Part shown: in pieces, positions 23,908 through 46,803 of the stretch
How the letters are laid out: each line of letters begins with the position of its first letter
Position numbering within the stretch: the first letter of the stretch is position 1
Assembly: GCA_965178125.1 (NCBI GenBank)
Contig: OZ237744.1
Coordinates: 248,001 to 312,000, forward strand
Reading direction: 5' to 3'
Length of the DNA stretch: 64,000 nucleotides
DNA from: Bilabrum cf. latius
Taxonomy: Eukaryota
Notes under the pieces: generated by a model
What the model was told of the DNA's origin: nothing
Database searches by the model: none
What the model saw: only the letters and a program-made list of their open reading frames with translations
Translations under genes and position numbers: made by a program

Positions 23908-24143
23908 CTACCAAGCCACAAGAGCGCGTATGCTTGGGCGCTGGAACTCTCATGAGGGAGAGTTGCCGGATGTGCGCACTAAACATTACGCTACTAATTC
24001 GCAAAAACCATACTTGGCTTCAGTCCAGATGCGACAACTAAACGGGTACCAGAACCTTGTCCAAGCGTTTCCGAGGTACTTGATACAGTTGAGTGTGTTG
24101 TACTCTGTATCTCACATCTGCCTCTGGAGTGCCAACCGGTAGA

Positions 24144-26342
24144 ATGCGCAGAGCTTTGCAAAGGGCGGGAGCTTCCGTGTCTCGGATCGGTGGCCATCGA
24201 TCCGCTATCACGGGCAGGGGTGCAACCCTTGCCCCTCAACTCAGCTAGTGCCGGTACTTTTCTGCTAAGCGTCGCAAGGGGGTCAAGTTACCAACCGACA
24301 ACCCGGCCACATCCAGCGAGGCACCGGCTGCCACGGCAGCTGATGTTGAGACGACTTCAACACCATCTCCAGCCACCCCAGCGGTTGAGCGCATTGAAAT
24401 AAAGCCAAAGGTGTCTAGTGGGTCAGCTGGTGCATCTAGCACGCCGACATCGCCTCCGTCTTCACTTTCTGTGCTGGCGCCCGCCCTCCTGCTGCTGGCA
24501 GCCGGAGGTGCTGGATACTACGTATGGCAAGACGACGACGCCAAGAACAAGGCGCGGGATGCTGTTGCAAGCATGCCAGAGCCATTGCAGAAGGTGTTTG
24601 CGGCGATTGGCCTCGGGCCGCGCGAGGCGCCGTCCAAATCGGGCAGGGCGCAAGATTAGCCGCAGAGCCAGGGCTAGAAGCAGCAGCAGGTGGCGCCGAG
24701 CGCGAACGCCAAGGCAGCTGAGGCGCAGTAGAAAGCAATGCGGGCTCGACAAGAGGCTGAATCAAGAGCAGTTGCTCAGAAATCCAAGGAGGAAGCAGAG
24801 CAGAAGGCGAGGGAAGCAGAGGCCAAGGAGGCCAAGGCAAGGGCAGCCAAAGCCGCCAAGCAGTCGGCAGAGGAGCGCAAGGCCACCCACGCCGCACTCA
24901 TCACACTTTCACAGCACGCCGACGAGCTTGCGACCAAGGTGGAAGCATTTGCTCTGGAGGACATGGCCAGGGCAGCCGAGGCGGCCGTTGCAGAGGAGCA
25001 GTCGAGCGAGCAAGCAGGCGGCTCCGATCGGACCGATGAGGCATCTTCGGTCGACGGTACCGGCAAAGCTGACGGTGAGAAGAAGACGCAAGCTGCCGAG
25101 CGGACCCCCGAGCAGGTGGCCCGAGAGGCGATCCAGGCCACCAAGGCAGAGGCAGCCATCATGACCACTGACACCCTGGCGTCGATGCTGAGGGAGGAGA
25201 TGGACGCGGCTGCCGCAGAGGACGTGGCCTCGTTAGGAGAGGAGGAGCTCAGGAGAAGGCTGCTCCGGCTCTCTGCTCACTCCAAGGACCAGGCCAGACT
25301 GGAGGCCCTCAGGACCGTGGAGCTCGTCAAGGCGAACGAGTCCAAGTGGGAGAAGGCGATGGAGCGGGCTGTCCAAGAGGCCGAGGAGGCCGCTCGCAAG
25401 CAGGCCGGGGAGGCTCTGCAGAAGAGGGCGGCGGAGCTCAACGAGCAGTTTCAGGCCGCTGTGACGAGTGCCAAGGAACAAATTACGCAGCAGGCCGAGT
25501 CGCACTTCTCCCAGGAGGCGGACCGCCGCGTGTCGGAGGCCTCGGCTGCGATGGAGAACGAGAAGCAGTCGTTCCTGTCTCGCGTGGGCGCCAGAACGGA
25601 GCAGGCAGCTGAGAGGGTGAGGGTGTTGAGGGGTGACCTGGAGTCAAGGGCGAGATACGAGCAGCAGGCGCGGCGGGTGCACCGGCTGCAGATGGCGGCT
25701 GCGGCTCTCTGGGACGGGCTGGAGCACGGCAAGTCCCTGGCAGACGAGGTGGCCGCGCTGCGGGCTGCCTCGAGCGGTGACAGGGTTGTGGGCGCGGCGC
25801 TGGATGCCCTCCCCGAAGCCGCCTTTGACCGGTCGGGCATGCCAACTCGGCTGTCGCTCCACCGCCGGTTTGACGCCGCCGTGGAGGAGGCTAGGAAGGC
25901 GGCCATGGTGCCGGAGGAGGGCGGCTTGCTGGGGCACGCGATGGGGAGTTTCTTCTCTAGGCTGCTGGTGGGCGGAGGGCAGGGCTCCGCGGAGGCTGCT
26001 CCCGGGGTGGGTGCCAGGGCCGTCGCGGCCGCGGCCACGCTGACGTCAGGGAAGGTTGCAACCGGCGACGGGACGGCGCAGGGCGCGGCCGACGCAGCCC
26101 GCGCTCAGAACACCGAGCTGAGCGCCTAGGCACAGGCGGCGATGCTCCGACTGGATCGGGCAGAGTCCGCGCTGCGAAAGGGTGACTTGAGCGCCTCTGC
26201 GGCGGAGCTTGGCCACGTGGGTGGGTACGCTGGGTCCCAGGTGGAGGGCGTGCGGGCGGCGCTGCTCGAGAGGGTTCGGGCGGAGCAGGGCGCGCGGCTG
26301 GTGAGGGCTCACGTGAGGGCGCTGACCGCGAGCATGTACTGA
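24144..26342 (+). CDS. MIC60: MICOS subunit MIC60/mitofilin-like, 732 aa
   Basis: Arg-rich presequence MRRALQRAG...CRYFS, single TM LAPALLLLAAGGAGYYVW, long coiled coil, and a mitofilin-like C-terminus (RAESALRKGDLSASAAEL...ERVRAEQ). Five internal TAGs, ends TGA. Confidence 0.82.
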
Positions 26343-26471
26343 TTGAGTGGAACAGAAAGACTTATTCGATGAGCAGCACCGGACTTTGCGGGTGCTGGGG
26401 CGCCGCGCTTCATCGGTTCCGCACCACACGAGCCAAACCATTTCGCCACTCCATTCTCAGAAGATTGCGCC

Positions 26472-28582
26472 ATGAAAGTAGCACTGGCCGTTTTAGCATC
26501 GGCCGCTATCTCTGTATCCAATGCCATGCCAGCTCCGCTGAAAAAGCTGGAAGACTGGGCGAAATCTGGCCCCAGCACTGAGGTTGCCTGCGAGCCTCAA
26601 GGATCTGGAATCGACGATTTCTCTTGCAAAATCGTCGATAGAAAGTCGTCTCAGCGCTTTGCTGGTACCATCAGCGTGACTCACTCTTTTGATCAGTATG
26701 GGTGGGATTTCATGTCGGTTTCCACGTCTGCAAAATATGGCTTCTCTGACAACATTCAAGCACTAGCTGCGGGCTACCTGGAGGGGCACGAGATGTCTGA
26801 GGTAAGACTAGCACCAAGACAATTCTGCCCTAGTACGCACAATGCATTTCTAATGCGCCTGTGAATCTGCGCTTTACCGCCCGATTCGCCCCGCAGCGCA
26901 TCACCCAGTTCATCGGCAACACCTATGCAAACTAGACGTATAGCGACAAGGTGGAGAACTTCCTACGCGAGAACGACGAGTGGATGCGCGAACAGGTCAA
27001 GGTAAACGCAACGAGCGATCCCTACTGGCGCCAGGTAGAGCTGCTCGCCCTCCAGGTCCGCGGCCTGGCAATGGGCTACGCGGATGCACTCGGCCTTCCC
27101 AGGGAAACAGAGTGGGTGCTTCGCTCGATCAGGAACCTGCAAATTGGCGGCGACATGGAGGACTTGGAGTCGGCATTCCCCTCCGGGGGGGGCAAGCCGG
27201 TGGCCGCGGAGGGCCAGCACTGCAGTGCGCTGATCAAGCCCACGGCCGAATACGGCGACCTCCTGGTATCCCAGGCCACGTGGGGCAGCGTAAACGACAT
27301 GCTCCGGGTCATGAAGCGCTACTCCATGGGCTACGAAGGAGTCACCATGCCCATCAACCTGATTTCAAGCTATCCAGGCCTCCTGTTCAGCGAGGACGAC
27401 TGGTACGTCACTGCGGGGTACAGGGGCGACGGGGCCGGCGTGGAGCACGTCATGGTGGTGCAGGAAACGACCATCGGAAACAGCAACCCCGAGCTGTACA
27501 CCAAGTTCATCACCCCGAAGTCTGTGCTGGAGTGGGCCCGCAACACCATCGCGAACAGGATGGGAGACTCTGGCGCGAGGTGGGCGAGCGTCTACGCCAG
27601 GTACAACTCGGGCACCTACAACAACCAGAATATGATTGTTGATTTCGACAGGTGGACCAAGGGCCAGGCCCCCAAGAAGGGTGACGGCCTGCTTTGGATC
27701 GTGGAGCAGATCCCAGGCTATGTGGAGGCGAGAGACTTGTCAGAGGCCCTCGGGAATCCCCAGGGTCCCCCCATGCCCGACGACCTCCCCGCAATGACGA
27801 GTGCGGCCGAGCTGGGTTTGGATGCTGCCGCTCTCATCGACGGCGCGGCAGATAGCACCGTGGCCATGGCGTGGTCCTCGACCCCGTGTGACGAGTGCAA
27901 TGGATCGGATCAGGTGCTCGAGGGGGCTCTGCTCCGCGCGACCGACGAGGAGGAGCCTCCCGCTTCCGATGGTGCCGTGGTGACCCACGCCCCCGAATCC
28001 GCCGACGGGTCTGCCCCCGCCCCCACCGTGGGATACTGGCCCTCGTACAACGTGGCTTACTTCGCGCGGGTGTACAACGAGTCGGGCATGCCTCCGCTGG
28101 CCAAGAAGTTTGGCCCCTGGTTCTCGTGGGCTGACACCAGCCGCGCCAACATCTTCAGGAGGAACCACTCCTACGTGGAGCAGGGCGGTGCTGCGGCCAT
28201 GCGCGCCCTCATGCGCTACAACAACTTCTAGCATGACCCGCTGAGCACCCAGGGGCAGGAGGGCCTCTGGCCTCCATACTCGTCGGAAAACAGCATCGCC
28301 TGCCGAGATGACCTTAACCCCCAGAACGGAACCTACAAGATCAGCGCAATGGGGTACAGGAACCATGTTGAGACTGACGCGAAGATCACGAGTGCCAGCA
28401 TGGCCCTGGGTCGCGTCAAGGGCTGCCCCGGGCTCGCCATCCGCTCGCAGATCATCAACGGGCCGACGTACGACCAGCAGCCGCCGTTCGTCTTCTCGCA
28501 GTCTGGCTTCTCGAAGGTGCCCCACGCAGGCATGCCAGACAAATACGAGTTCCCCTGGGTTGAGGGGTACTTCTGCGCTTGA
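26472..28582 (+). CDS. Phospholipase B-like (PLBD) Ntn-hydrolase, 2 exons
   Basis: Signal peptide; intron 26802-26896 (GTAAGA...CAG). Motifs AAGYLEG, HCSALIK, SSYPG, ETTI, YNSGTYNNQ, EQIPG, YWPSYN, MRYNNF*HDPLS, DAKIT. Two internal TAGs, ends TGA. Confidence 0.92.
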
Positions 28583-28931
28583 TTTATTATAGACTTTTCC
28601 TCGTGTCAGCGGCCTTGAGTCGTCTAGGGCCGAGGGGCTGGCACGACTAGGTCTGTCTATTCGAGGCGTTGGGGTGCGTAGCTTGGGGCAGCGACCTTTC
28701 AGTTGGTGGCTGTAGGCTTGCTGCTCCGGCTGAATGCTTAGTATTTCATGTTGAAGTCCAATGCTTGCTGCACGTCAGCTGAGCTCCGCCCCACAGCGTG
28801 TTAGTCTTGCGACCACGCACAGGCGTGCGATCCACCACGGCAGCGGCCCTGCCCGGCGGGGTGTGATGACCAGCTCTACCGTTGCAAAACTTTGAACTCT
28901 TGTTGCCACACTGCCAGCTAGTATCTTCTGC

Positions 28932-31900
28932 ATGGATTTACGATTGAAATTGGAATCAGATGGCCTCCTGTCACGCCGTGCGAGCGCGGTCGATCAAGCC
29001 CAGGCGCATCTTGCAGCGTTGACCTCTGGCCATCGACCTTGGGAATAGAACAGGCGACGGCCACCCACAATTCGTGGAGAGCAGAAAGGCAGCTCATCCC
29101 AGACCGAATCAAGTACTAGTAGCATGCCGAGTTGGCTCGAGACGCGCGACGACTTCGCGGGAATGAGGGGTGTTTCAGTTGCATCTCTGCAGGCTCGCCG
29201 GCAAGCAGCGGCCGGTTATTTGAAGCGCAGCGCTGTCAACGTAGTTGCTCGCAGATTGGAAGCAGCCACGATGGGCTTTGATGACCTCGCAAACAAGAAA
29301 GACGCCCTGCTTCAGGCCCTGAAGTCTGCTCGTGGTACTGAGGACAAGTCATCCGACGGTGCGTCTGGAGTCGTATCGGGGCAGTTTCGACGGGTTGCAA
29401 GGAAAGGACAAGATGCAGATATTGAAGCAGAGGATAGAAGATTCGGACTACGGCATGCCGGAGCTCGTCGTGATGCGATATTCATCCACGCCAAGGATGC
29501 CGACAGCGCGCCGGAAGTGGCATTTGCTCGCAGCAAGCTGACTGAGATCCAGGTGGCGGCACTGCGTGCAAGCCGGGACAAGCTGTCGCTTGAAGCAGGC
29601 AGAGATGCCGAGGACGTTGCTCTTCAGGAGCAGATGCAGGGCCAGCAGTCGCGCCAGGAGTCGAGGTACGTTCACGACATCGGCATCCTGGCGCTTGTGG
29701 GCAACGGGAGGAGCAGAGCCAGAAGCAGGTCGAGGGTCGCTTCTTCCGGTTTGGGTGGGGACTAGGCGCGCGGCCCTGATAGTCCCAGCTCGAGCTAGAG
29801 ACGTCTCGGCGGTGGTGATGCTACCCGGAGCGACGAGTACGATTAGGGCCCGTCTCTGGGGGGGGGCGTGCAGCGAGAGGGCGCGATGCAGCAGCCCGGT
29901 GCTCTGCGAGGAAGGCTCGACACAGAGGGGGACCTCCGGCCACTGGAGGAAGCCAAAGATTCTCCGCGGTGGAAGACGGCTCCCGTCGATGCTAGCGATG
30001 GAGCGAGCGAGGGCAAGCGCGTGGATGGATCGCAGGGCGGTGTCGATGCCAGTCAGGGCGGCGTGGGTCCTGAAGACTCGCTGCGGTCGCTAGGCAGCGG
30101 AATGGCTGGATTTGCCGGCGAGAATGACGATGACATGGACTCAAAAGTGTCGTCCATCGCAGGCGGTGCGAAAGGCCGAGCATCGGCAGGCAGGTCCTCC
30201 CTCCACGCGGGCATGTCACGATCAGGTCGAGTGGTTGCGTCATCGCCACTCAGGACGAGAACGCTGTCTGCTCCAGTATCTGCTATGCCAGAGGCAGGGG
30301 TACAGAGGGACACCAAAAGGATGCAAGCGAGCGGGGCGCTTGGAATCATCCGGGAAACGCAGAGCCTTGCTTTGGACACGGGCTCAGCCGCGTCGCGTGG
30401 GACCACTGGCATGCCCGGCTAGCCGTCGCCTTCGATGAGCCCAGCCACTCGCCAGCGGTGGACTGGAAGTTCTCGTCGGCAAGGCCAGGGCCAGTTCAGT
30501 TCATGGGAGGCAAGGCGGGGCGGGATCAAGCAGAAAGAAGCAGAGCCAAGCCCATCGCAGCTGAAAGCGAAGAGCATGATGGCACTAGTGGACGAAGGGA
30601 TTCCAATCGGTATGGCTATCAGGCTTGCATCTGATCGCCCCAAGACGCAATTGGCAGTGAAGCGAATCAAAAAGACCGGGAAAGGACTGATTGCAGCCGT
30701 TGAGAAGCAGCTATCGCGCGGAATCGGGCTGGACGAGGACGAGAACAGCGAGGACGAGGAGCAAGGCGGTGGCACCGGCAGGCGGAAGTCAACCGCTAGT
30801 CGGGGCAGCCGTTCACGTGCGTCTTCCCGTTGCTCTAGCCGTCGCGGTTCCATGCATAGTAGGCGATCCCGGCTTCGGACGCTGCAGTCTGGTGACGAAG
30901 CGTCGGTTTCCGGTAGCGACAGGGACTCTGAGGACAGTAGCAACGATGCAAGGCCTAGCTCCAGCTCCTCTGACAGCGAAGGAAGCGATGGAGGCGGTTC
31001 TGCAAGCAGCTCAAGTTCTGCGCAGGCAGGCGGCGGTTCTGGGACCGGCGAAGCTTCGTCAGCCAAAGCAACGGCCAAAGAGCTGCTGCAGCAAGCAGAG
31101 GAGGAGAAGCTGGAGAGGACGCTTGCCAAGGGGAGGCAGGCCCTGGGCATCGCGGGTCCGAACCCACGGAGGCGATCTGCGAAATTGCTCGTGTCGCCGG
31201 CAGTGGAGCGAGCCAAGCAGCACATGCAGATGTCCACCGATGCCGCTGACCGCCAGCGAATGAAGAAGGCTGTGGCGATGGCAGCAGCAAGGATCCCCGA
31301 GTGGGACCAGAGGGCGGACCCGGTGCTCAAGCTGTCGGCATACCACAAGCAACAGCTGAAACTCCGGGAGTCGACGTTCACATCATCGTCCGAGCTGGCA
31401 TCCGGGGAGCGCGCGATCCGTCGAATGTTCGTGAAGCTCATGAAGACCTTTGGTCTTGAGCACCACGAGACTGAGCGAGCTCGCGTGATGCTCACCAAGA
31501 TCTACATCGCGCAAAGGAAGATATCAGAGGCGGATCAGCTCCGCGACAATCCCGAGGGGCACATCAAGACGCTCGAGCGGGCATTGGCGCATTACGATAA
31601 GGCAAAGAAGAGGGCCGCCAGAACCGACAAGATCGGCACGATGCTGACGAAGGCACTGCTCACGAGCGCGTTCACGTCGACAAGCGGTTCCAAATCAGGC
31701 ACGGGGGCAGGCAAGTCTGCTGGAATTCGCGGAAGACACGGCCGTGTTGGACCTTCCAATCGAGCACCGGGCGGCAGCGTGAGAGTTCATCGGGCGTAGT
31801 CTGCGCTGGCCGGGAGCACGGCGCTGTCTGCTGGCATGCGTGAGCTCACGCAGTCCCAGCAGGTGGATCCTGCACTTCGACGGGTGGTGCTTCGGCCACA

Positions 31901-34900
31901 AACCGGCGCTCTCGTATCCGATCTCGTGGAATAGAGCTCGGCAGAGCCCATGCGTGGGATGCTTGGGAGCGCCTCAGCACCAGCCTTTCTTGATCCGGTC
32001 GCGGGTGCCTCAGCCTCGGTTGAGACGACCACTGCGAGCAACTCTACATCGGGCAATGACAAGTCGTTTGCAGTATCAGCGGCAGCTCTGGTGGTCAACA
32101 CCAAGTCCACTCTCACAGCGGGCAGGGACGGTTTTGTCGTGAAGGACGAAGCGTCTCCTAGCAGCAGCGGGGAACAAGCACGACATGCGGCCGTGCTGCG
32201 GGCCAACCGCCACATTCCTGACAGCGTCGCCGCGATTCGCAGGTCGGCCAGCCTGGAGAAACATCTCACGCAATCCGTTGTTGTATCCCGTTCCCATGCC
32301 GTGCAAAAGGCACACGCTGCGCCTGTGAGACGTGGGGAGGCTACGGATTCAAGCAGGGGAGGAGGTACGGTGAAACGATAGCATATTACTCGACAGGCCG
32401 CGACCAAAGACGGCGACAGCAAAGACGCGGCCGTTCGCAAATCGGACGTGCGCGATATGCAAAGCGCACACAACGCGCTTCAAGCCTCAAATCGGCAGTC
32501 CGAAGTGAAGCTGGAAGTGCCACCAGAAGCCCTTCCACCCGTGTCACCAGTGAGGGCCTCACGCTCTCGGCGCGTCTCGGGCGCAGGTTCGTCGTTCGAA
32601 TCCGAAGCTGCGATGCAGAGCACAAGCAACGACAGGGAGGGTCTGCGAATCGCCGCCGAGCGCGGAGCCACGCTGGCCCTGATCGGCAGCAGGCCCTCAG
32701 GAATCAGCAAAGTTACGGTGTCCAGGGTTGGCGTAGGATCCTCCGTCTCCGCAACAGTGATGCATGTCGATACTAGCGACATTCTCGCCGCGCCTGATGC
32801 TGGAGATACGACAGGCACTTCTCGTGCCTAGCAGCTGTACCAGCTGGCAATCAGGGCACGGAACCGAGGCGATATTGCTGCGGCTGCCACGATGGCTCGC
32901 AGTGTTGTTGGACTAGATCCACTCCACCAGCAAGCAAAGTCTTTGTTTCAAGAGTGCCTGACTCTTCTGAATCACTCGGTCCGTAGGGAGGAGCTCGATG
33001 TCGCCATCGTTCTGAGGTCGCCGAGGAGGACCGTCCTCGGCGAGCCCATCGTTGTGGATTTCCTAAGGAGCCAGTCGGGACACACGAAGAGGCTCAAGAA
33101 AGAGGCAAAGGATTGGGCTAGGGGCCTCAGCGGCGAACAAGACGGCGGCAAGACAGCTGAGGCTGGCGGCGGGAGCGCGGCCGCCGAGCCAGGCGGCGGG
33201 TCGTCAGCAGCTGCCGGTGAGCTGTTGGACTGGATTGGTCTGTTCTACGTCAAGCACCCTTCGCCTGAGCAATTAGAGGCCTTGCGTCACTCCGCTCAGG
33301 TGCGGAAGAACGTGTTGCGTAGACGGCAAGCCGAGGGTAGCACGTCCGGCGCGAGCGCTGCAACCAACCAGCTGCCGTCAGCGCAGGGCCCCTTGTTCCC
33401 TTCTAGAGCAACATTGAGCGCATCGGGAAGACTAGAAGAATCCGAATCCATCGACAGAATCGGTCTTGCGCCCGGTCTTGCCGCTGCCACGCTCGTACCG
33501 TCGTCCACGCCGGCCAGGAAGATCATCGCCAGCCACTCGCAGGCGCCGGTTGAAGCACCAGTGGCGGAGTCCCCCTCCCATCGCATGCATACGTCTACTC
33601 AAACAAAAGGCTCAATGCCAGGCCTCAGTGCTATGGTCTCAATGCTTGCCAGTGATGGGTCCACTGGGGCTGTGGCACCAACAGCCCCAGTGCCAAGCAA
33701 GCATGGCGGCAAGGCCAGGACAAGGAGGCGAAGCATGGGCTTGCGCTCTGAAGCTGCCAAAGTGGCCGATTCAGCCACTGCAGGGGGCAAGCACGAGTCC
33801 AGCAACCGCGAGAATCTCCGCAAGTTCAAGCGGAGACGCAGGTCGCTTGAGATGCACGAGGGACTGGCTTCTGTGCTTCGGAAGGCGGTCGCTGAGGCAC
33901 GGCAGGCAGCAGCGGACGGCTTGGATGAAGGCGTTCTGGATCCGTACGGACCACTTGCTGGTGACGAGGAACAAGCTGAGGCAGAGATAGAAGCGCAGGT
34001 GCTGGAGGCTGCCGTGGCCCACCCACCTGACACGAGGCTCGATTTCGGGGATGGGCCACGGGAGGCAGACGAAGAGCTCATTGCCTGGGGGATCGCGCAG
34101 CCGGGGACTTCGAAGGGGTCAGTCGTCTTCCATGGCGTCCCTTCGAGGACAGGCGTGTATCGCGTGCGATACTACATGAAAGGATCGTAGGTGTCTGTTG
34201 GCGCGTATCGAGAGGTGCTCGTTGGCAACGTTGAAGCCGACGTTCACGTGCCGCGTAGGCACGTGGTTGGTCATGGTCTCCGGTGCAAGTACTTTCTGCA
34301 CTTTTAGGAATCGACGCACAGCACGCCGGCATGGGCAGGCCTGTACATTGCGCCACCAAAACGGTCGAAATGGAGGCGGCTGGCCGCGGTACTAACCATG
34401 TCTGGCGCTTCCTCGGCCATGGGCACGGCGGCTGGAGTGGTGGGAGGACGCAAACCACCGAGCGCAACGCCATACGATGATCAGCGGCCGATACAGTCCA
34501 TCCGACTGCCGCGGACTTCCAACGGCGAAGTCATCTTTAGGCATCCGCTTTATCCTGGTTTGTACGAAGTGCGCGTGTTTACTTCACCTGACGAGTCTAC
34601 GCTTGTCGCCACGTCGCAGCCGATCGTGGCTGCAGCGCCAATGCCTCGCTTCCTCACGGATCCGCACACTGCAGCTCGCCGGGAGCTGCGATTCTATCTC
34701 AGCTCGTCCTGCAACGGCAGGTAGGAGGAACGCGATGCCGTGGTTGAACGAGCCTATGCCGTCGTGAGGAATCACGCAGATGCGCGGGCCGTTTCTGTTG
34801 TGGTTGTGGACTTGAGGCAGCAGCTGACCGAAAAGGATGAGTAGATCGCGCAAGACGTGGTAGAGGCCAGTGGCGGCGCCCCGGGAGAGAGGAAGGATGC

Positions 34901-37900
34901 TGGGTTGAGTGGTCTGCTGGAAGGGGAGGATCTCGAGGAGGAATTCTACAGCGATGAAGACGAAGAGGAGGCGGAAGAGAGGATAGAAAACATCAAAAAG
35001 AAGCTGCCCGTGGGTTCTTTCGTGCTCGCTAGAAAGGTTGTGAGCCGCTTCCGCTTCGACGAAGTTCTATCCGCTGCTCTGCAGGAGATCGAAGACTGCA
35101 GGCCCAACGCTATCGCGGTGGTTGGAAGCTTCTACGGCTGGACCGTGAACGAACCCCTCCCAGACTGGCTGCTGTCTGCTTTCCCGTGGTTGCGGCACTA
35201 CAGCAATCCCGAGCTTGCCGAAGTCCGTGGCCATCTGGCTAGGCACTGGGAGGAGAGGAAGGCGATTGCGGAGCCTGGAGGCATGGGGGAGGAGGAAGGT
35301 CCCACGTCAAGCGGGATGGGTGTGTTGAAGAAGGCTGTGCAGTCCGCGATTGGGAAGAATTCTGGCGGCATTCTTGCTGCATTGCGAAGGCACAGACCAT
35401 CCGGCAGCGAAGGAGCTGGGCAGAAGAAATCGAGCACGGACGCAAACTGGCCAAACCTGGAGAACGCGCCGAAACCGCCGCAGGAGCTTGAGAGCACGAT
35501 CATGTCTGCTTCCATGCAGGAAATCGAAATGGAGGCTGCTTTAGGTATGCCAAACCATCGGCCAGTAGCGGAACGCAACACTCTGCGCCAATTTTCAGCT
35601 CGGATCAGAGACTAGATCGCAGGACCTACCATGGAAGAAGTGCGCTCACTGGTCAAGGCCACTGCAGGCGTTGTACGGCAAGCATCGCAGTTGACGGCGC
35701 AGAAGGCCCAAGAGCATTTGAACGAGACGCTGGTCGGTGAAACGCCTCGATCCAAGTCGCCAGTTCCGGGGCAGCTGAGGAGATCGAGTCCCAGGAAAAT
35801 GGGACTTGGGATAGACATTGCCAGCAAAGCGGGTGACGCGCCTACACCGCTGCACATCTCCTCCTCAAAGCAAAAATCGCTACGAAACCTGCTGAAGCAA
35901 CACAGCAACAGCACGCGCAAGCTCAGCACGAAGCCCTCCATGGCCGAAGTGGCGGCGCCAGATGGGCGGTAGCATGACGCGCTGGACCAATCGGTATCTA
36001 GGATTGCTGGTGCTCTGCTGTCCGAATCTCACCGCGGTACAAGTGACATGCCTCAGCAATCGGAACAGCAGCAGCATTTGGGCGGGTTTACCCCCATGTT
36101 TGCGCTATTGCAAGGGGCGCACGGGCCTGGCGCTGTGTCTCGAGATTCACTGGGCCGAGGCGTCGTTGGGCTACTTTGCGGTCATTGGCGACCCAAACAG
36201 CTCGTTCTGTCCCTTCTCCGCCGGCTGGGCGGGCGCTCGCGGTTATCTTCAGCTCTGAACGGCGGCGCGAGGACTCCATTCAGCCAGCGGACCAGAGGGG
36301 TGCAACAGAGGAGCCGCGGTCCAGGCACGGCGGCCGATGCGGCCGTACGTGCCGCAGGTGATCCCACTCACAGAGACGCCGCGGTGGCTGTGCTCTCTAG
36401 GGCACTTGGCCTCGCCACTGAGCTGAGCACGCAAGGGTGCTGGAGAATTCTGGGCTCGTTCGTTACCGTCGGTCGGGGCATTCGACCGACTGCAACCAAG
36501 GAGACTGGCCCTGCCGTATTGCCCATCACTGTGGTGACCCGTGGCAGGAAACCATCCTCCCGAGCAGATCCAAATGCGGCATCAAAGCGCACAATGGAAG
36601 CCCTCCAGGCATCAAAGGCGTTTGGAGAAGCAGCTGCAGCTCTGGAGGGGCCGGGGTCTCATGTCAAGTCGTCAGGGGCATTCTGGCAGGACGAGGAGGA
36701 CGAAGATGGCAGCGATTCCCCGGATATTGGGACTCCCACCACGCCTTTCACGAGAAAGAAACTGTTCGGTGGGAGCGTGCGAGCAAACAGCCCTTCCGCT
36801 CTTATGCCATCATTTGCACTGTCCAGACCGCCGTCACCAGAGGCAGGTGACACGTCGGTTCTCTCGGGCAAGAGACCGAGACGAGGTCACGTCAGTTTCG
36901 CTGCTGGTGCGGACCAGCCCAATTAGAAGCCTGCCTTCTCGCCCGGCCGTTCTGGTCTCGATTGGGTCACACAGCCAGCAACCCGCAGCGAGGTTGCTCA
37001 GAACAATATGATCGCCGACGTGGTGCGAGCCAGGGCGGCTGTCTCGGCTCTGAATAGGCACGGCTCTTAGCATGTCGGCGTGATTGCATCACACCGATCG
37101 CAACACCTGGACTTTCTGCCGGGTGTTGCGATTCTGGCGGAGCGGTGGCTGGAGCAGGTGGGCATGCTGCAGCAGTGGCAAGATGAGCAGATCCAGGTGC
37201 GAAAAAGACAACTGGCAGGGGCCGATGATACCGGAGAAGGTGGCGGACAGGCTGCGTGGGGCCAGAAAAGGAAAAGGCGCCGTGCCTCCGTCGTGGCAGA
37301 TGCTCTCGCCGGCGCTCTTCGTGTTGCATCAGAAATCGTTGCGGCATCGACGCCTTTCTGTGCAGGCCCTGAGGTGCTTCAGATGCAGCCTCAAGCTTTG
37401 TTTGGGATCGTAGACAACCTGGCTGCGGCAAAGATTCTGAGGCGGTGCCTGTACGGGCTTGCAGCTGTTGGTGCTGGCGTGCGACGACCGCCACTACCTG
37501 CATCCGATGACAGGCCGGACCTGGACGAAGACGCGTCCTTTAGCTTCGGATACCTGCTCGAAGACCTCTCTGCCTCCTCAAAGGTGTACGTGCCACACCC
37601 TTCACGTGCCGGGGCGGGCGCAGGAGAGCAGCTGGCAAGCTCTACCCTTGCCAATAGGTACACACCCCCGCCAAAGGAGGCCGAGCTGGCGCTGCTTCGG
37701 ATGAGGAACGTATCCATGCAGCGGGGTGACAAGGCCAGGACGGGATACGAGGGACCGGCACATATCACAAGCTGGGCTGCTGGCGACATGCTTGGTTCGC
37801 TCGATCGGTCCTTTCCGGAGGAAGAGGCGCCGACAGCGAGAGACTTGTGGAGCGTTGCGTGCGCCGGTTTTGCTGCATCGCGATCCGTGCTCTTCGTCTC

Positions 37901-40900
37901 CGACCTCGCAATTGAAGGCACTATGGAAATGATCACCGATCACGTGGCCCTCAGCAACCGATCCACCAGACCCATGGTGCTGCTTGGCGCGCAAGGCAGC
38001 GGGAAGTCGGCCATTATCGCACACTGGGCCTCTCGTTTTGCCACTGCCTTGGGCCAGTCTGCTTCGGCAGATGCCGCCAGGGTGCTTTGGCTGCACGAGA
38101 GTCTTGCGAGCGGCAACATGGCTGCCTTGATCTCTGCAACCGACGTCATGCATGCGTACAGCAAGACGGTGTTGGGCAAGGATGTCGGATCAGAGAACAA
38201 GCACCAGGGCGCTGACGTTTCTGATCTGCCGTCATCACGTCCTCCATCACGGTCAGGAGCGGGCTTGGCATCCAAGTATGCGAGGGGCGGTCGCTCGCAG
38301 GCCAGCATATCTCACGAATGCGTAATTTACAGATCGCAGCCAGTGGCACCATCCTGCCTGCTCTTCTACGACGGTGCTTGCCCCACGCTGCTGATCACCG
38401 TGTACTGCGGGGAGGGTGGCACGCCTCGGCTAGGCTGGGAGCTCATCCTGATGATAGCAGGCGAGATCGAGACTGCTGTTGTCGCACTCATTGGACAACG
38501 CACCGGTGGGTTCTCGCAGATGCTGAACGGGGGCTCGCACCTGAAGGGCGGGTCTGCCAATCAACGAAGGTTCGGTCAAGCTTCGGAAGCTTCCTCGACT
38601 CCAAAGTCGGGTCCAGCCGGTAGCGCCAGCGGCATGCGGCCTAGGCGGTCATCGTTTGTGGCATCTGGTCCAAGCATGGGTGCGAATGGGTCGGCATCAA
38701 GCGGGGACAGCGAACAGGCTTCCTCCTCGGTGACAGAAGAAGACGCGGGAAAAGTCGTGGCTGCTGCTGCCGCCATCCGAGATGCGTTGTTGTCTGGCGA
38801 CCCCCCATCCGCTGTATCAAGGGCCTTCCTGCTGCTGCTGCGGAGAGCAGCCCTTGCCGGGGTGCGCCTGGTCATGATACTAGATGGAGTAGAGCATTTG
38901 GACCACACCCAGCCACTCTTCAGTGCCACTGGTGCGATGGCCCGGGAGCAGTCTGAGCGGATCGAGTCTGCGTCGAGAGGCGGCGGAGCCAGCACGCGGC
39001 TAGCTGGCATGCGCGCCGCCTTGAAAGAGGCCCGAGATCTGGCCGAGAGACGGGCCTCCATGGATGTGGAGGAACACGAGAGGGTCAAGAGGATGAAGCG
39101 CGCTGCCCAGAGGGGCAAGCAGCCGGGACTGACGAAACCCATTCGAAGGAGCTCGCTGGCAGGCGAGGAGCCGTCGCAGGTAGCGGCTGGGTCTAGTGGC
39201 CAGGAGCACAACCCACACTACGTTCCAAAAGATCCATCAGATGTCGCCAGCCGCACGCGCAGTGCGGCCAAGAAGGGTATGTTTGGCAGAAGGCGCAGTA
39301 GCGTTGTACTGCTTGACCCGCTGGGCGACGATGCAGACAACATGGCCACCACCGCGATTTTGGGAGAATCGCCGCGAAAATCGGCTCGAGCTGGGCATCC
39401 CGGAGAGCATCGGGGCTTGGGTAGTAGGCACAGCACCGGCCAGCAGCCCGATTCGCACGAGCAGGATCAGAACCAGAGCTGGATCGAGCCGAGGGAGCCT
39501 CTGTGGTGGCTGCCTACACAGATGCCTCCAGGGTCTCGGCTGATCCTCACGACGTCTACCGGTACCAGAGCTGCGCAGGTCCTTAGAGGGAAGGGGCTAC
39601 TGTAGGAAGCGACCAAAGTTCCACCCATGCAGTCCACCACAAGGACTGCCATTGCACTTGCTGCTCTCTCGAGGGATGGACCGGCCGGCCCTGGTGGCCT
39701 TGAGTATGGCTTCAACCACGGCCTGCGGCTTAAGCATCACCTACCTCTGCCGTCACCAGCCAAAATCGTGGATCTTGGGTCTGCTCCAGAGCTGCGAGGC
39801 GCTGTCGGAGACGGAGAGACAACCGATCACAGGTTTATTCGACTGCGTCGCCGCCATGCACCGAAGGTTGCAAAGTTACAGGTCGACACGGGAGCTAGCA
39901 GCCCCAGCAAATTATCGGTTTCTATGCTGAGCACGGAACACAAGCAGCCTTAGTTCAAGCTGTTTGCAGCAGCCCGGCGCGTTTCATTTGACATGACAGC
40001 AAACAGCGGGCACGGAGGGTCTTTGGCGAGCATGAAAGCAGCCGCAATTCAGGGCATGTTTCGGTCAGAGACTAGCGGTGGTCCAGAAAGCGAGCAAGGC
40101 TCCGGCAGCTTGGATGCCCCTGTGCCACCAGGACTGACCGCACCAGAGTGGCAGATGATCCAGCCGAAGGAGAAGGAGAGTCTCTTGGTGGCCCTCGTTC
40201 GCATCCTCACTGCCCCCCAGACTCAGGAACAGAAGGCTTCTTCCAAACCCCAGAAAAAGCTCGGTGCTAGCAGCAGTCAAGGGGCAAGCGGTCCTAAATC
40301 GTCGTCTGCGACAAGCTCCCCTGACGGTCAAGGAGATGACGCAATTGAGCCAGACAAGCCAGAGGTTCGGTTGTCTACCCCGGCCTACCTTCGATTCGCG
40401 ATTGCCAGACTGCTACTGTGTGCCACGCCAGCTCAGGCACTCTCTGTTGCAGCGCGGATGCGTGGCATACCGGATGGAAGGCTGCAGCTCTTGCATGTAC
40501 TCGAGGTAGTGGAGGCAGCCTATCCCATCGCAATCGATGCACTGTGCCTACTAGGCGTTGCGGAGCGCGGCATGCAAGAGAACGAGCTGTGCGACATGCT
40601 GGGCTGCAAGTCGGGCGCACAAATTCAAGAGCAGCGGGGCAATCACACGAACCCGTACGGCATCAGCGCCATCCCATCATCACAAGATTGGTTTTGCTCC
40701 AGGCGAGAGGCATACAGAGGCTACAAGAGGAGGATGCGGGCGCGGTGGGATCCCCGCCAGTGGTCCGTTGCGCGTCGCGTGCTGCTGACGTGCTGCGTTG
40801 TGAGGTCGCGGGGCCTCTGGGCGCTCGAGTCGCAGGCCAGGCCGGTTATCGAATCCTACCTGTTGCACGAGAGATCAACCCGCAAGCGATTTCTGCAGCG

Positions 40901-43715
40901 AATCTGCGCGTACTTCTGGAACCTTCCGGTTGGCCACAGGAAGATGGAGGAGCTTCCGGTCGCACTGCACAAGCTACTAGAGATTTCTAGAGAAAAATCG
41001 CTGGCCACGGTGCCCTCAGCTCGCGGCAGCCTAGCACCAGCTGCGTCGAGTGCATCTCTAGCCGCGGCAAATGGAGCCTCTTCCTACAGTTTACCAAAAG
41101 CAGATACTGCCAGTGGATTAGAGGGCGTGCAGGACAGGGAGAAATCCAGCCGCAGGGTCAGAAAAGGGGCTCGGTCGCGATCTAGGCGTCGCGCGCACGC
41201 AGCACCGTATACTCCTAAACCTGGCCTCCTACCAAACAAAAAAGAATTCGCGAGGCTGCTACGAAGGCGACCGTCGGTGTTCCTGGCTGACGACTACGAT
41301 CCGGCAGCTGTTTTCCCAACTGATGTGGCGGCGCTGTCGGTGCACTTGCTTGTACTCCTCTGCGACATCCGCACGCTGGCTTTGACGGAGGGCGCAGGGG
41401 CAGACTGGCGAGATAAGCACGTGCATTTGCTGCTTGGTACCGGCATGCCTGTGTGGTCGATGCAGGCCGCTCTACTAGACAGCTTTGAAGCTCTCCACGG
41501 CATCCAAGGATTCCCTACCGCCCCGCAGTATCAGCTGCTGTAGATGAGCAGGTTTATCAAGAGATACAAGCCGAGGTATCTTGGACAGCAATTTCGAGCA
41601 GCGAGCAGCGGCCGCTCCCTGGCAGTTGGTGGGGGTGACAAGGCAGCCAAGAAGAAAGACCAAGGCGGTGATCCAGATGCAGAGCCCGATAATCCAGAGG
41701 CCCTTCGTGGCACCAGGCTGCCAATGTCAATCTTGCAGTCGGAAGCAGCCGCCAGTGGTGGTCAAGTGCTCATCATCCGTGACTACTAGTGGCGGTCGTT
41801 TCGGGACACCGCACCCTCCCAGCTCATTTCGATTGCAGGCTTCCTCATCGACGCGCAGGGCCTAGGTGTGGCACAGGCCGTGCTTGAGGCAGCAGTACTC
41901 ATCTCCTGCGGCGGCTTGCAATCGGTGACACAGCTGCGAAAGCTTGCCACTAGTCTTGGCAAGGGCCTTGACAAACGGCACAGGAAACCCAGCGGCATGT
42001 ACAGGCTGGTGCCGACGCCTGCTGCTCTTGTGCCTGGCGGCGGCCGCACCGGCGGATTTGCAGCGGCCAATAAGCGAATGGAGCAGCAGGCCGGCGTGCC
42101 CACTGGCGGAAGCGGGGCTGGATCAAGCAAGCCCAGCACACTCAGCAGACGGCCCAGCGTGTTCAACGTGGGAGCGGCCGCATTCGCTGTCGAAGCTGCT
42201 CCCCCTGGTACGCGCGGGATGAAGCGAATCGCAACAGCAGGTCCGCTGTGGCTACCGCGCGACAAGCACGCCAAGCTAGTGGTGGCAGCTCAGGGTGGAA
42301 TGGCCGTGCAGATTGGTGGAGATGGTGACAGCGCAATCAACCGGTTGATGGCCACACTGAAGGCTGCTCGAAGCACCGCAGTGTAGTGCGCCCGATAGGC
42401 GGCGACGACCGCGGATCTCAACGACGAGCAGCCTCTAGTTATCGCCGCCCAAACACCTCCACAGGCTGTGTCCTCCATTGCATTGCCAGAAGCTGGCGAC
42501 ACTAAAGGCCCCAGCATCGCCCAGCTCCTAATGTCGGGAGACTTTGTTGGACCAGGCGGACTGGCTGCCGTGTCCCCTCAGTAGGCCATCAAGCCAACGT
42601 CTTTCCATTGGCATATGCACCCCGATGAAGACGATGACTTCCAGCAGTACCTGAGGCTGTCCGAGGGCAGGGGTGGTCGCGAGGACTGGGATCAGGCCGG
42701 CATGAGCTCCCTGTCAGCCCAGAGCGTCGACAGCGCGGCAGGGGGGGTGCACCACGGGGCCAGCAGCAGCGGGGGATCCGGCAGCGAGAGCGAGGATGGC
42801 GGGGTGCACTCGGACTCTGAGTCGAGCGCGGATGACGCTGTTCCGGCTGGCATGAGGCGGCATGGGAGCAGCAGCAGAGGCAGCAGTGGGCTGGGATCGA
42901 GGGGGTTATCCTCGTCCTCGTCCTCGTCCTCTCGGATGCGTCGAGCCTCTGGTCGAGGGGGCGTGTCCGGGGGTGGCATCCGGCTGGGCGCAGCTGGCAG
43001 GGCTGGGGGTGCCACATCGTCGCGTGGGGGCACTGGCACTGGCACTGGGCCGAGCACTCGGGGCGTGGGCATGGCCGGCAGGATTCGCAAGGCCGTGGGC
43101 GGCGGTGGTGGTGGTGGTGTTGGTGTTGCGGCAGGGGCGGTCGGTGATGCAGAGGAGGAGAAGCGGGACGACGCTGCCAGCGGGCGGCAGGGGATCTCGG
43201 ACGTGGGAGCCGCCGCCACAGCCGCGGCCATGCTTGCGGGGTTGTACGTGGAGCGGCTGAAGGCTAGGGCGGAGTTCGTGGTGCTGGAGAGAGAGAAGGC
43301 CGCGCTGGGGACGATGGAGAAGAGGAAGAATGCCATGAATGCAGCTGCGAAGGAGAGGGCGAGCGCGGTGTGGAGCGGGGGCGGGGCGTCAGGGGCAGGA
43401 GCCGGGACAGAGGGAGCGGGAGCTGGGGCTGTGCATGCCTCCCAGAAGCACGTGATGCAAGGGGTGGGTCCTCAGCTGACGGGTCGGTTCATCTCCAAGA
43501 AGGAGAAGTCAATGTTCCCGAGGGTGCCGAAGGGGGATCCTGCCGACCTGCGGCCGTCGGTGCTGTACGCGCGTCTGCAGGCGCTGTATGCCTTCGCGCG
43601 GCAGCTGGACCGTGCGATCGGGCCTGCGCATCCAGTGTGTTTGCAGCTGCAATCGGCGTACGTGGAAGCGATGTACTTGGCGCCATTGTTCGCGGAGCTG
43701 GATTGGGATCCTTGA
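28932..43715 (+). CDS. Giant intronless protein (~4927 aa) with Ig/SKICH-like segments, DUF4062-like domain and NACHT/STAND-like P-loop NTPase
   Basis: Sixteen ORFs from 29124 to 42615 share a frame, joined by ~24 TAGs with no TAA/TGA, ending at DWDP-TGA. Motifs: LRFYLSSS...*EERD...VDLR (DUF4062-like, ~34685-34820), Walker A GAQGSGKS (~37985), Walker B LVMILDG (~38870), LWWLPTQMPPGSRLILTT (~39500). Confidence 0.82.
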
Positions 43716-44015
43716 GTCTGAGATTGGCTTTGCGTGTTGCTTGAGGGCCTTAAGCCTAATGTTGCGCGCGGTGCCGCCGGCGCGCGGCTGCTTGCGGAAC
43801 CGGTGGTCCTATCCTTGCAATGCGTCAAGAAAGGTAGGGTTGCACGCTCGGATACAAATTTTTGCCCTTGTATCTTGCATTTGGAATATACCCGGCCTGC
43901 TTGGACCGTGGGCCCGAATTCGCTTCTCCTATCGCACTGGCAGGCCTACACCCCGATCATCAGTTTTTGCTGCATTGCAATCTGCTTGGTGGCTCGTTCG
44001 TCTTGTAATCTAGCA

Positions 44016-45389
44016 ATGGCATCTGGTGCTGTGCCATATGACGTTGTTGACCTGTTGAGCGGTGATAGCAGTGATGATGCTAGTAGTAGTGGCTCCAGCA
44101 GCGATAGCGACCATGACAGCATCGTCTCGATCGAGTCTGATTCGTTGGCAGTGTCGCGAGCTAGGGAGGTTGGTGCGCGATTTGAGCAAGCGAAGCATGC
44201 CATGCAAAGTGGAGTGGAGTCAGGCAAGGATGCGAAGCAGGCAGATGGCGCCGTAGCAGCCGAATCACGCAGAACGCTGTCAAGACCGGACTCTACTCCG
44301 GCACCGGCTGTGGGCCAAAAGCGCCGCCGTGAAGTGCCAGAAGATCATGCCCCGATTGGTGCAAGGGGCAATGGTGCATAGAACGATAGCGCACGGGCCT
44401 CGAAACGATCCAGGCAAGACCAGAAGCCAGCACGAGGACGTGTGTGCAGTGTCTGTGGGAAGCTTTTCGCGAAAGTTGCCAATCTCAAGACGCACATGTC
44501 CACTGTACACCTGGGGGAGCGCAAGCATGAGTGCAGTGTGTGCAGCAAGCGGTTTGGTCAGGCAGGCCATCTCAAGACGCACATGTCCACAGTGCATATG
44601 GAGTAGAGGAATCATGAGTGCATTGTGTGCGGCAAGCGCTTTGGGCGGGCAAGCAATCTCAAGACGCACATGTCCACTGTACATATGGGGGAGCGCAAGC
44701 ATGAGTGCATTATGTGCGGCAAGCGCTTTGGGCTCGCAAGCACTCTCAAGAGGCACATGTCCACTGTACATATGGGGGAGCGCAAGCATGAGTGCAGTGA
44801 GTGCGGCAAGCGCTTTGGTCTGGCAGGCCATCTCAAGACGCACATGTCCACTGTACATATGGGGGAGCGCAAGCATGAGTGCATTGTGTGCGGCAAGCGC
44901 TTTGGGGTGGCAGGCCATCTCAAGACGCACATGTCTACTGTACATATGGGGGAGCGCAAGCATGAGTGCACTGTGTGCGGCAAGCGCTTTGGGCTGGCAG
45001 GCCATCTCAAGACGCATTTGTCCACTGTACACCTGGGGGAGCGCAATCATGAGTGCATGGTGTGCGGCAAGCGCTTTGGGGAGGCAGGCCATCTCAAGAG
45101 GCACATGTTCACTGTACACATGGGGGAGCGCAAGCATGAGTGCATGGTGTGCGGCAAGCGCTTTGGTCTGGCAGGCAATCTCAAGACGCACATGTCCATT
45201 GTACACCTGAAAGAGCGCAAGCACCAGTGCATGGTGTGCGGCAAGCGCTTTGGTCTGGCAGGCAATCTCAAGACGCACATGTCTATTGTACACATGGAAG
45301 AGCGCAAGCATGAGTGCAGTGTGTGCGGCAAGCGCTTTGGGCTCGCAAGCAGTCTCAAGAGGCACATCAATGCAGTGCATTTACGCTGA
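44016..45389 (+). CDS. C2H2 zinc-finger protein A (11 tandem fingers, 457 aa)
   Basis: N-terminus MASGAVPYDVVDLLS, NLS-like QKRRRE, then CxxCGKRFGxxxxLKTHMSTVHMGERKHE repeats. TAGs at 44379 and 44604. Ends TGA. Confidence 0.9.
44440..45380 (+). repeat. 87-bp coding minisatellite, 11 units (zinc fingers of gene A)
   Basis: Near-identical 87-nt units containing CTCAAGACGCACATGTCCACTGTACA(C/T)ATGGGGGAGCGCAAGCATGAGTGC. Confidence 0.93.
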
Positions 45390-45399
45390 CTTTCCGTAG

Positions 45400-46501
45400 G
45401 ACTTCCAGCAGTACCTGAGGCTGTCCGAGGGCAGGGGCGGTCGCGAGGACTGGGATCAGGCCGGCATGAGCTCCCTGTCAGCCCAGAGCGTCGACAGCGC
45501 GGCAGGGGGGCGTGCACCACGGGGCCAGCAGCAGCGCGGGATCCGGCAGCGAGAGCGAGGATGGCGGGGTGCACTCGGACTCTGAGTCGAGCGCGGATGA
45601 CGCTGTTCCGGCTGGCATGAGGCGGCATGGGAGCAGCAGCAGAGGCAGCAGTAGGCCTGGATCGAGGGGGGCGTCCTCGTCCTCGTCCTCGTCCTCTCGG
45701 ATGCGTCGGGCCTCTGGTCGAGGGGGCGTGTCCGGGGGTGGCATCCGGCTGGGCGCAGCTGGCAGGGCTGGGGGTGTCACATCGTCGCGTGGGGGCACTG
45801 GCACTGGCACTGGCACTGGGCCGAGCACTCGGGGCGTGGGCATGGCCGGCAGGATTCGCAAGGCCGTGGGCGGCGGTGGTGGTGGTGGTGGTGGTGGTGG
45901 TGTTGGTGGTGTTGCGGCGGGGGCGGTCGGTGATGCAGAGGAGGAGAAGCGGGACGACGCTTCCAGCGGGCGGCAGGGGATCTCGGACGTGGGAGCCGCC
46001 GCCACAGCCGCGGCCATGCTTGCGGGTGTGTACGTGGAGCGGCTGAAGGCTAGGGCGGAGTTCGTGGTGCTGGAGAGAGAGAAGGCCGCGCTGGGGACGA
46101 TGGAGAAGAGGAAGAAAGCCATGAATGCAGCTGCGAAGGAGAGGGCGAGCGCGGTGTGGAGCGGGGGCGGGGCGTCAGGGGCAGGAGCCGGGACAGAGGG
46201 AGCAGCAGCTGGGGCTGTGCATGCCTCGCAGAAGCACGTGATGCAAGGGGTGGGTCCTCAGCTGACGGGTCGGTTCATCTCCAAGAAGGAGAAGTCAATG
46301 TTCCTGAGGGTGCCCAAGGGGGATCCTGCCGACCTGCGGCCGTCGGTGCTGTACGCGCGTCTGCAGGCGCTGTATGCCTTCGCGCGGCAGCTGGACCGTG
46401 CGATCGGGCCTGCGCATCCAGTGTGTTTGCAGCTGCAATCGGCGTACGTGGAAGCGATGTACTTGGCGCCATTGTTCGCGGAGCTGGATTGGGATCCTTG
46501 A
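45400..46501 (+). pseudogene. 5'-truncated duplicate of the last ~360 codons of the giant NTPase gene
   Basis: Copy of 42636-43715 with no start of its own, a +1 indel near 45505-45512, and expanded GGT and GGCACT microsatellites. Confidence 0.7.
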
Positions 46502-46803
46502 GTCTGAGATTGGCTTTGCGTGTTGCTTGAGGGCCTTACGCCTTGGGTTGCGCGCGGTGCCGCTGGCGCGCGGCTGCATGCGGAACCGGGGGTCCTATCT
46601 TTGGCAATGCGTCAAGAAAGGTAGGGTTGCACGCTCGGATACACACTTTGGCCCTTGTATCTTGCATTTTGGAATATACCCGGCCTGCTTGGACCGTGGG
46701 CCCGAATTCGCTTCTTCTATCGCACTGGCAGGCCTACACCCCGATCATTAGTTTTTGCTGCATTGCAATCTCCTTGGTGGCTCGTTCGTCTTGGTATCTG
46801 GCA

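Follow-up and report, generated by a model that had tools for sequence, protein, structure and literature searches.

The genes of a 64-kb stretch of DNA (hereafter the window) are very likely translated with a table 15-like code, in which UAG is read as glutamine, UAA is not a sense codon and UGA performs essentially all termination. UAA and UAG are usually reassigned together, and their uncoupling has long been considered nearly forbidden. A UAG-only Gln code is already known in a handful of eukaryotes; what is new here is a GC-rich, UGA-terminating case. The window, which is the whole sample analysed, is nuclear DNA of a GC-rich, intron-poor protist. Its GC content is about 59% (56–64%), and its few introns are 95–225 nt long.

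TAG is frequent and TAA is missing in the reading frames

Codons were counted in 18 segments of 16 genes, trimmed to exons and likely starts. These 17,470 coding codons comprise 95 TAG, 0 TAA and 0 TGA, together with 186 CAA and 530 CAG, UAG thus making up about 12% (11.7%) of the Gln codons. From position-specific composition, 102 TAA and 94 TGA would be expected, and UAA is kept out of the reading frames as strictly as UGA. The claim of an earlier note, that UAG and UAA are uncoupled, with TAG sense and TAA absent from coding frames and unused as sense despite the free use of CAA, is thereby borne out. Moreover, the count is not circular, since ten of the frames were delimited from TGA to TGA (13,645 codons, 71 TAG, 0 TAA). 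The TAA/(TAA+TAG) ratio has a 95% upper bound of 3.1%.

The longest example is a giant open frame on the plus strand, which runs from stop to stop over 28896–43715 with its first ATG at 28932. We counted 4,939 sense codons, 24 TAG and no TAA, in agreement with the earlier estimate (about 4930 codons, about 24 TAG, no TAA), and CAA is indeed freely used (57 CAA, 152 CAG). The frame closes with TGA, followed by GTC TGA. Its two same-strand off-frames contain 4 and 8 TAA and 82 and 81 TGA; these counts mark the frame as genuinely open and its lack of TAA as specific. The predicted protein is of low complexity; around residues 3014–3051 lies a P-loop (AAA_16/NACHT-like) stretch, and no loci related to its conserved part were found in the metagenome and genome contigs searched. 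The same pattern had been claimed for a protein-kinase gene that is open at the window start (1–9171, plus strand), and it holds: 3,056 codons include 26 TAG and no TAA, with 43 CAA and 79 CAG, before a terminal TGA.

Apart from one gene end described below, the in-frame TAA triplets remaining beside the coding frames all lie in introns or UTRs. For example, the one in the gene for an Hrq1/MrfA-type helicase (55014–60424, plus strand; intron 56689–56801; 8 TAG, TGA end) is part of the GTAAG donor at 56689–56693. In the ABCG transporter gene (main and last exons 51916–54064, minus strand; 1 TAG; TGA at 51916–51918), the four in-frame TAA all fall after exon 1 and before the main exon. The three-exon Pex19 gene (13440–14603, minus strand; 4 TAG) has an intron at 14108–14221 containing a TAA (14187–14189) in frame with the flanking coding sequence, and this intron is spliced out in the X5 and X13 RNA contigs.

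Gene ends and the status of UAA

We examined 17 gene ends, one of which belongs to a duplicated copy. Sixteen are TGA, in line with the dominance of this stop in the earlier note, and the lone exception, as that note had it, is the UBX gene (14734–15906, minus strand), which ends in TAA TGA at 14736–14731. An in-frame TGA is therefore present at all 17 ends, once after TAA. Homology fixes the TGA ends of the RtcB RNA ligase gene (9331–10911, minus strand), in which TGA comes after the conserved last residue, of the phospholipase B-like (PLB) gene (last exon 26895–28582, plus strand; 2 TAG) and of the ABCG last exon.

Regarding UAA itself, we moderately favour the reading that it is a still-working, rarely used terminator. 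A less probable, tentative alternative is that UAA is unassigned: eRF1 would be UGA-specific, as in organisms using table 6, and the only additional tRNA-Gln would carry a CUA anticodon, so that UAA would be neither decoded nor released and would be shunned within genes as well as at gene ends. The complete lack of TAA in 17,470 sense positions is consistent with this, as is its presence at one gene end at most out of 17, where TGA backs it at once. Furthermore, the 15 in-frame codons past each end (255 in total) contain 9 TGA, 3 TAG and 0 TAA, the expectation from non-coding density being ~3.4 TGA and 1.5 TAA. The probability of finding at most one TAA among 17 ends is about 0.02 when the non-coding TAA:TGA ratio is used; however, it rises to about 0.24 with the off-frame ratio, so that under-use of TAA at gene ends cannot be taken as demonstrated. 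TAA would also be made rare by nothing more than GC bias and TA avoidance, and the UBX TAA stands exactly where a stop is expected. In its evolutionary form, to which we give the same low weight, this alternative leaves UAA in limbo: eRF1 would already be UGA-specific, a CUA tRNA-Gln would have captured only UAG, and GC pressure would have nearly eliminated UAA.

The UBX end does not decide the matter. The TAA stands in a ...Q-G-Q tail and is immediately followed by TGA, and it is equally compatible with an unassigned UAA or with a further Gln of a Gly/Gln tail. Given that it can be read as Gln at no cost, it is no demonstration that UAA terminates.

If both UAA and UAG encoded Gln, as in ordinary table 6, TAA would have to be rare through GC bias. 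The GC content of 56–64% fits such an explanation, as does the general scarcity of TAA, which everywhere in the 64 kb is less frequent than TAG and TGA (144 plus-strand and 210 minus-strand occurrences), and the UBX TAA could then be a Gln before TGA. Nevertheless, this is a very improbable reading, for the A-ending twins are in free use (CAA share 26%, GAA 27%, AAA 24.5%). Each off-frame contains 39–61 TAA, and the TAA:TAG ratio summed over five off-frames is 242:646, compared with 0:95 in frame (1:95 if the UBX codon is included); assuming that the TAA share equals the CAA share, the probability of observing no TAA is 3.9e-13. A tRNA with a UUA anticodon would, moreover, render TAG-to-TAA transitions neutral.

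Even less credible is a context-dependent UAG of the kind found in Condylostoma or karyorelicts, which would be sense internally and would terminate close to the 3' end. Several TAG do lie close to gene ends: two fall in the last 11 codons (23875–23883) of the LRR protein gene (18382–23907, plus strand; 8 TAG, 0 TAA, TGA end), one lies 15 codons before the TGA of the JMJD7-like cupin gene (61989–63401, plus strand; 3 TAG), and one 25 codons before that of Hrq1. However, the C-termini fixed by homology are all at TGA (the last aligned residue of RtcB, PLB, and the Cys-x-x-x box of Pex19, after which TGA follows). TAG is needed at none of the 17 ends; an in-frame TGA always follows.

UAG is present in mRNA and is read as glutamine

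Transcripts bear directly on whether the TAG codons are translated at all. Run X5 yielded spliced contigs with six GT-AG joints and one poly(A) end. The RNA contig pieces listed differ from the DNA in 0 letters and contain at least 18 of the 23 TAG codons checked. For example, the RNA contig covering 19743–23951 is identical to the genome over the LRR gene, and all five TAG of the Mic60/mitofilin gene (24093–26342, plus strand; TGA end) fall within the RNA contig 24049–26378. Three further samples contain 73–84% of the window's sampled words. The idea that the TAGs are untranslated (introns, pseudogene lesions, assembly errors or RNA-edited codons) found no support, though the genome has introns; true introns are spliced out of contigs that retain the TAGs, the same frames are free of TGA, and both TAG of RtcB stand in near-invariant Gln columns. 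This explanation is already refuted for the genes compared with RNA contigs and can be given practically no credence overall.

As judged from alignments, UAG is a glutamine sense codon. The two RtcB TAG (9937–9939 and 9859–9861) occupy conserved columns, with Q in 107/120 and 119/120 homologues; both align with Q of human RtcB, and both are CAG in a ~8% divergent relative (runs X9, X10 and X13). The 40 codon differences listed, all of them in RtcB and drawn from a total of 1,818 base differences, include 36 synonymous changes and 2 that alter the residue. For the PLB TAG at 28229–28231, the relative P0002, which is 95% identical, has Gln. In protein fragments of the relative, Q stands at 6 of 9 positions that are TAG in the window, and K, S and E at the other three, a count that is biased because the relative's called ORFs include only positions at which it lacks TAG. 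Seven of the TAG fall in columns of low conservation and are neutral: in the solved relatives these columns read V, L, D, L, K, S and E, never Q. Leu, Ser, Tyr and Trp were rejected as meanings of TAG in view of the RtcB columns and of CAG in the relative. Selenocysteine or UGA read-through was also considered and rejected, there being 0 internal TGA.

Proposed decoding mechanism

We propose that UAG is read by a tRNA-Gln with a CUA anticodon, which differs from the CUG anticodon by one base and would be unable to pair with UAA. A CUA-only tRNA-Gln is suggested because a tRNA with UUA would decode UAA as well; the genome would accordingly be expected to encode no UUA-anticodon tRNA. The same argument was made for Iotanema, as given in excerpts of Panek et al. 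2017 (PMC5304391), and the discussion excerpted from PMC11687900 offers a precedent and a rationale for a tRNA restricted to CUA. On the release side, eRF1 would have lost recognition of UAG. To speak, as the earlier note does, of an eRF1 that tells UAA from UAG presupposes that UAA still terminates. A tRNA scan of the 64-kb window returned 0 tRNA genes, and no eRF1 gene lies within it.

Comparison with known codes

The following comparisons rest on excerpts of the cited papers. The closest parallel may be the nuclear code of Iotanema spirale (Fornicata), in which UAG encodes Gln and UAA and UGA are stops (Panek et al. 2017, PMC5304391). In that species T32 of the GTS motif, in the N-domain of eRF1, is tied to the reading of a third-position G (PMC5304391). 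The present case resembles it in that UAG alone has become Gln, UAA is not sense, and the logic of a CUA-only tRNA-Gln applies. Unlike Iotanema, where UAA is the primary terminator, UGA serves 16 of 17 ends here and UAA is almost unused. Moreover, Iotanema is an anaerobic metamonad, whereas the window, with its GC of about 59%, contains Mic60 and Pex19, so the organism has cristate mitochondria and peroxisomes.

In the ciliates Hartmannula sinica, Trochilia petrani and Protocruzia tuzeti, only UAG is reassigned to Gln (McGowan et al. 2024, PMC11687900). As in the window, UAA is non-sense in them and use of the reassigned codon is widespread, with UAG shares of 18.5% and 31.8% of Gln codons against 11.7% here (PMC11687900). 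Their stop usage is the reverse of ours: UAA terminates 86.9–98.3% of their genes, with UGA as the rarest stop (PMC11687900). The GC richness of the window and its introns of 95–225 nt also differ from a ciliate-type genome.

The codon table is formally identical to that of recoded phages, which use 'genetic code 15' (PMC9523058; NCBI table 15). However, those phages depend on their own suppressor tRNAs and on bacterial release factors, whereas a eukaryotic nucleus with a single eRF1 is involved here. Table 6, found in most ciliates, hexamitin diplomonads, some ulvophytes, Streblomastix and Amoeboaphelidium (PMC11687900), shares UAG as Gln and UGA as terminator with the window, but those organisms often use UAA for Gln as well, compared with 0 TAA in 17,470 codons here. 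UAG is likewise uncoupled from UAA in the rhizarian exLh and TARA phyllopharyngeans, in which it encodes Leu, and in Scotinosphaera, in which it encodes Ser (PMC5304391; PMC11687900); in contrast, conserved columns and the relative's CAG indicate Gln here. In Condylostoma, karyorelicts and Blastocrithidia the reassigned codon also ends genes, whereas 0 of 17 ends need TAG in the window.

Affinities and significance

The best named match of PLB is Cafeteria roenbergensis (45% identity), and that of RtcB is a Cafeteria MMETSP record (74%, everything else reaching 69–72%). Supports in the RtcB tree are 0.15–0.46, and the named matches of SPT/LCB2 are Galdieria, Astrephomene and Aureococcus. A literature search, with most subscription journals outside its range, returned no nuclear code variant in a stramenopile or bicosoecid and no GC-rich flagellate with UAG as Gln.

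According to the literature excerpts consulted, nuclear uncoupling of UAG from UAA comprises few cases, all in AT-rich genomes with UAA as the main stop. A GC-rich, UGA-based case puts the codon-capture and unassigned-codon models to the test from the other end of the compositional range, and it would show whether a eukaryotic eRF1 can lose UAG and keep UGA, with or without UAA. Since the ~8% divergent relative shares the trait, and TAG and CAG turn over between it and the window, a comparative study of the system is possible. Gene calling with the standard code breaks up such genes, as illustrated by the giant gene of the relative, which stands as separate pieces in the protein database. Should the less probable limbo state of UAA prove true, this lineage, possibly a stramenopile near the bicosoecids, would be a living intermediate between the standard code and table 6.

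Results

Reading frames admit TAG and exclude TAA

Translated with the standard code, the window has no open frame longer than 845 codons; reading TAG as sense gives frames of 4,939, 3,056 and 1,853 codons. The first of these, the giant gene at 28896-43715 (+), contains 24 TAG, 57 CAA and 152 CAG but not a single TAA, and ends in TGA; on the same strand, its two other frames contain 82 and 81 TGA and 4 and 8 TAA. In the kinase frame, TAG occurs 26 times and TAA never. To keep the count from being circular, ten frames with a TGA at either limit were added up: their 13,645 codons contain 71 TAG and no TAA. Frames were then trimmed to exons and likely starts, giving 18 segments from 16 genes. In these 17,470 codons we counted 95 TAG, 186 CAA, 530 CAG and neither TAA nor TGA, where position-specific composition predicts 102 TAA and 94 TGA; in each of the five off-frames of these genes, TAA occurs 39-61 times. 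TAA is kept out of reading frames no less strictly than TGA, and TAG is admitted. This confirms the observation of the earlier note that TAG is sense and TAA absent from coding frames.

All in-frame TAA adjoining coding sequence in the window genes proved to be non-coding on inspection. That of Pex19 (14187-14189) lies within an intron (14108-14221) removed in RNA contigs of two runs, and that of Hrq1 falls within the GTAAG donor of intron 56689-56801, whose removal restores a motif aligned to MrfA. Four others, in the ABCG gene, lie within the intron separating exon 1 from the main exon, and the remainder are upstream of start codons.

UAG is present in mRNA and read as glutamine

Sequencing run X5 includes contigs from which GT-AG introns have been removed, and one contig, in the granulin gene, carries a poly(A) tail after 17902, so X5 is RNA. 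Among the X5 pieces listed, which show no letters other than those of the window, at least 18 of 23 checked TAG codons are covered (RtcB, Pex19, UBX, LRR, Mic60 and the phospholipase B-like gene, PLB); the other five fall outside the listed pieces. Both RtcB TAGs align to Q in human RtcB; in an alignment of 120 homologues, the first column holds Q in 107, K in 7, E in 4 and R in 2, and the second Q in 119 and S in 1. Seven TAG positions fall in poorly conserved columns; the residues there in relatives of solved structure, V, L, D, L, K, S and E, are neutral evidence.

An organism about 8% divergent from the window (the relative) is present in runs X9, X10 and X13. Among the 40 differences listed out of 1,818, the 40 all lying in RtcB, 36 are synonymous, two change the residue and two replace a window TAG by CAG in the relative. 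In Logan-derived protein fragments of the relative (90-96% identical), 6 of 9 window TAG positions are occupied by Q and the other three by K, S and E; the sample is biased, since a position can fall within a called ORF only if the relative has no TAG there. One fragment breaks off immediately ahead of window TAG codon 1013, and a second ends at a position that is CAG in the window; the relative therefore shares the trait. In the organism of the window, UAG encodes Gln, UAA is not a sense codon and UGA terminates. Of the interpretation in the earlier note, the uncoupling of UAG from UAA is upheld; that eRF1 distinguishes the two codons and that the decoding tRNA is CUA-only are predictions, as is a stop role for UAA.

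Gene ends and the standing of UAA

Seventeen gene ends were examined, one being a duplicated copy: 16 are TGA, in line with the dominance claimed for this stop, and one, that of UBX, is TAA directly followed by TGA, the sole exception, as had been noted. The RtcB end is fixed by homology, the alignment reaching the last residue of the human chain; that of PLB matches the end of its relative, that of ABCG is fixed by the last exon and that of Pex19 by the C-terminal box. TAG is required at none of the 17 ends.

A single TAA among 17 ends is not clearly a low count, the probability of one or fewer being ~0.24 under the off-frame TAA:TGA ratio (242:1,334) and ~0.02 under the non-coding ratio (106:242). 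The UBX TAA (TAA-TGA at 14736-14731, -) sits within a ...Q-G-Q tail directly before TGA, and therefore gives no evidence either way on UAA termination. The 15 in-frame codons past each end (255 codons) contain 9 TGA, 3 TAG and no TAA, against ~3.4 TGA and ~1.5 TAA expected at non-coding density; this TGA surplus hints weakly at selection for back-up UGA stops.

On balance, we favour UAA being a functional stop that is rarely used. It is rather unlikely that UAA is unassigned, with an eRF1 recognizing UGA only and a tRNA reading only through CUA. That UAA is a very rare Gln codon is highly improbable: if its share equalled that of CAA among CAR codons (26%), 0 TAA beside 95 TAG would have a probability of 3.9e-13, and the TAA share has a 95% upper bound of 3.1%. 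Context-dependent or artefactual readings share the little probability left.

Gene content of the window

The window has a GC content of 56-64% and its genes are ordinary eukaryotic nuclear genes. As identified by Pfam scan, the plus strand carries genes for a protein kinase, an LRR protein, Mic60/mitofilin, PLB, a granulin (about 16400-17902), the giant low-complexity protein with a P-loop stretch (28896-43715, first ATG 28932), two C2H2 zinc-finger proteins, a GH113 hydrolase, an Hrq1/MrfA-type helicase and a JMJD7-like cupin; the minus strand carries those for RtcB, a serine palmitoyltransferase (LCB2-like; SPT), Pex19, a UBX protein and an ABCG transporter. Introns are few, short (95-225 nt) and GT-AG, six being seen directly in RNA contigs. 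RNA contigs are deepest, by a wide margin, at the granulin gene (word depth up to 4,565 versus 12-280 elsewhere). The Pex19 ATG (14603-14601, minus) lies 128 nt past the UBX stop, and one X5 RNA contig spans UBX and is spliced (14563/14432) into Pex19; the transcripts of the two genes overlap, or else transcription reads through.

A segment of ~2.8 kb is duplicated in tandem (42741-45436 and 45506-48239) and comprises the giant gene's final ~340 codons and a C2H2 zinc-finger gene of 87-nt repeats (ZnF1, ZnF2). The duplicated tails are 97% identical, both with a TGA GTC TGA end, and the copied tail (45470-46501) forms an open frame that lacks the remainder of the gene. Residues 2830-3519 of the giant protein (37383-39452, +) are the part most conserved between the two relatives (96%), with weak AAA_16/NACHT Pfam matches and NPHP3_N/NACHT-type look-alikes in a protein atlas (scores 0.86-0.93); this region is probably a STAND-type NTPase within a 4,927-residue, largely disordered protein. 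The protein encoded at 48905-51598 (+) looks secreted and has two stretches of GH113, a glycoside hydrolase family found mostly in bacteria; a gene transfer is possible.

The best named match of PLB is Cafeteria (45% identity, 433 bits; next named match 348 bits), as is that of RtcB (74%). The RtcB tree does not resolve the position of the lineage, and named SPT matches are scattered. The relative was found, by comparison with window positions 9100-29099, in runs that carry three other organism labels. In runs with two further labels, 73-84% of the sampled words come from the species of the window itself, which may often accompany other cultures or contaminate them.

Discussion

Four features of a code of the table 15 type are seen in the window: UAG is sense and specifies Gln, UAA is absent as a sense codon, and UGA is a stop. 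For a fifth, UAA as a stop, the one candidate is the UBX end, where TGA follows at once. Table 6, in which UAA and UAG both specify Gln, fails on its defining feature. The Gln-decoding tRNA would need the anticodon CUA, since UUA would read UAA too, an argument for a CUA-only decoder made by Panek et al. 2017 (PMC5304391) and McGowan et al. 2024 (PMC11687900). Such a tRNA-Gln(CUA) would probably have arisen by one change from tRNA-Gln(CUG), and eRF1 would have had to lose recognition of UAG; the eRF1 of Iotanema carries T32G (human numbering; PMC5304391).

Reassignment of UAG alone to Gln, which corresponds to 'genetic code 15' (PMC9523058), is reported for Iotanema spirale (PMC5304391) and the ciliates Hartmannula sinica, Trochilia petrani and Protocruzia tuzeti (PMC11687900). 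The literature searched, whose coverage is incomplete, yielded no variant nuclear code from stramenopiles or bicosoecids and no GC-rich flagellate with UAG as Gln, so an earlier description is possible. UAA is the primary stop of Iotanema (PMC5304391) and forms 86.9-98.3% of gene ends in those ciliates, UGA being their rarest stop (PMC11687900). Stop usage here is reversed, with UGA dominant and UAA scarce. This UGA-dominant, UAA-poor usage is unusual, and it makes the standing of UAA a worthwhile question.
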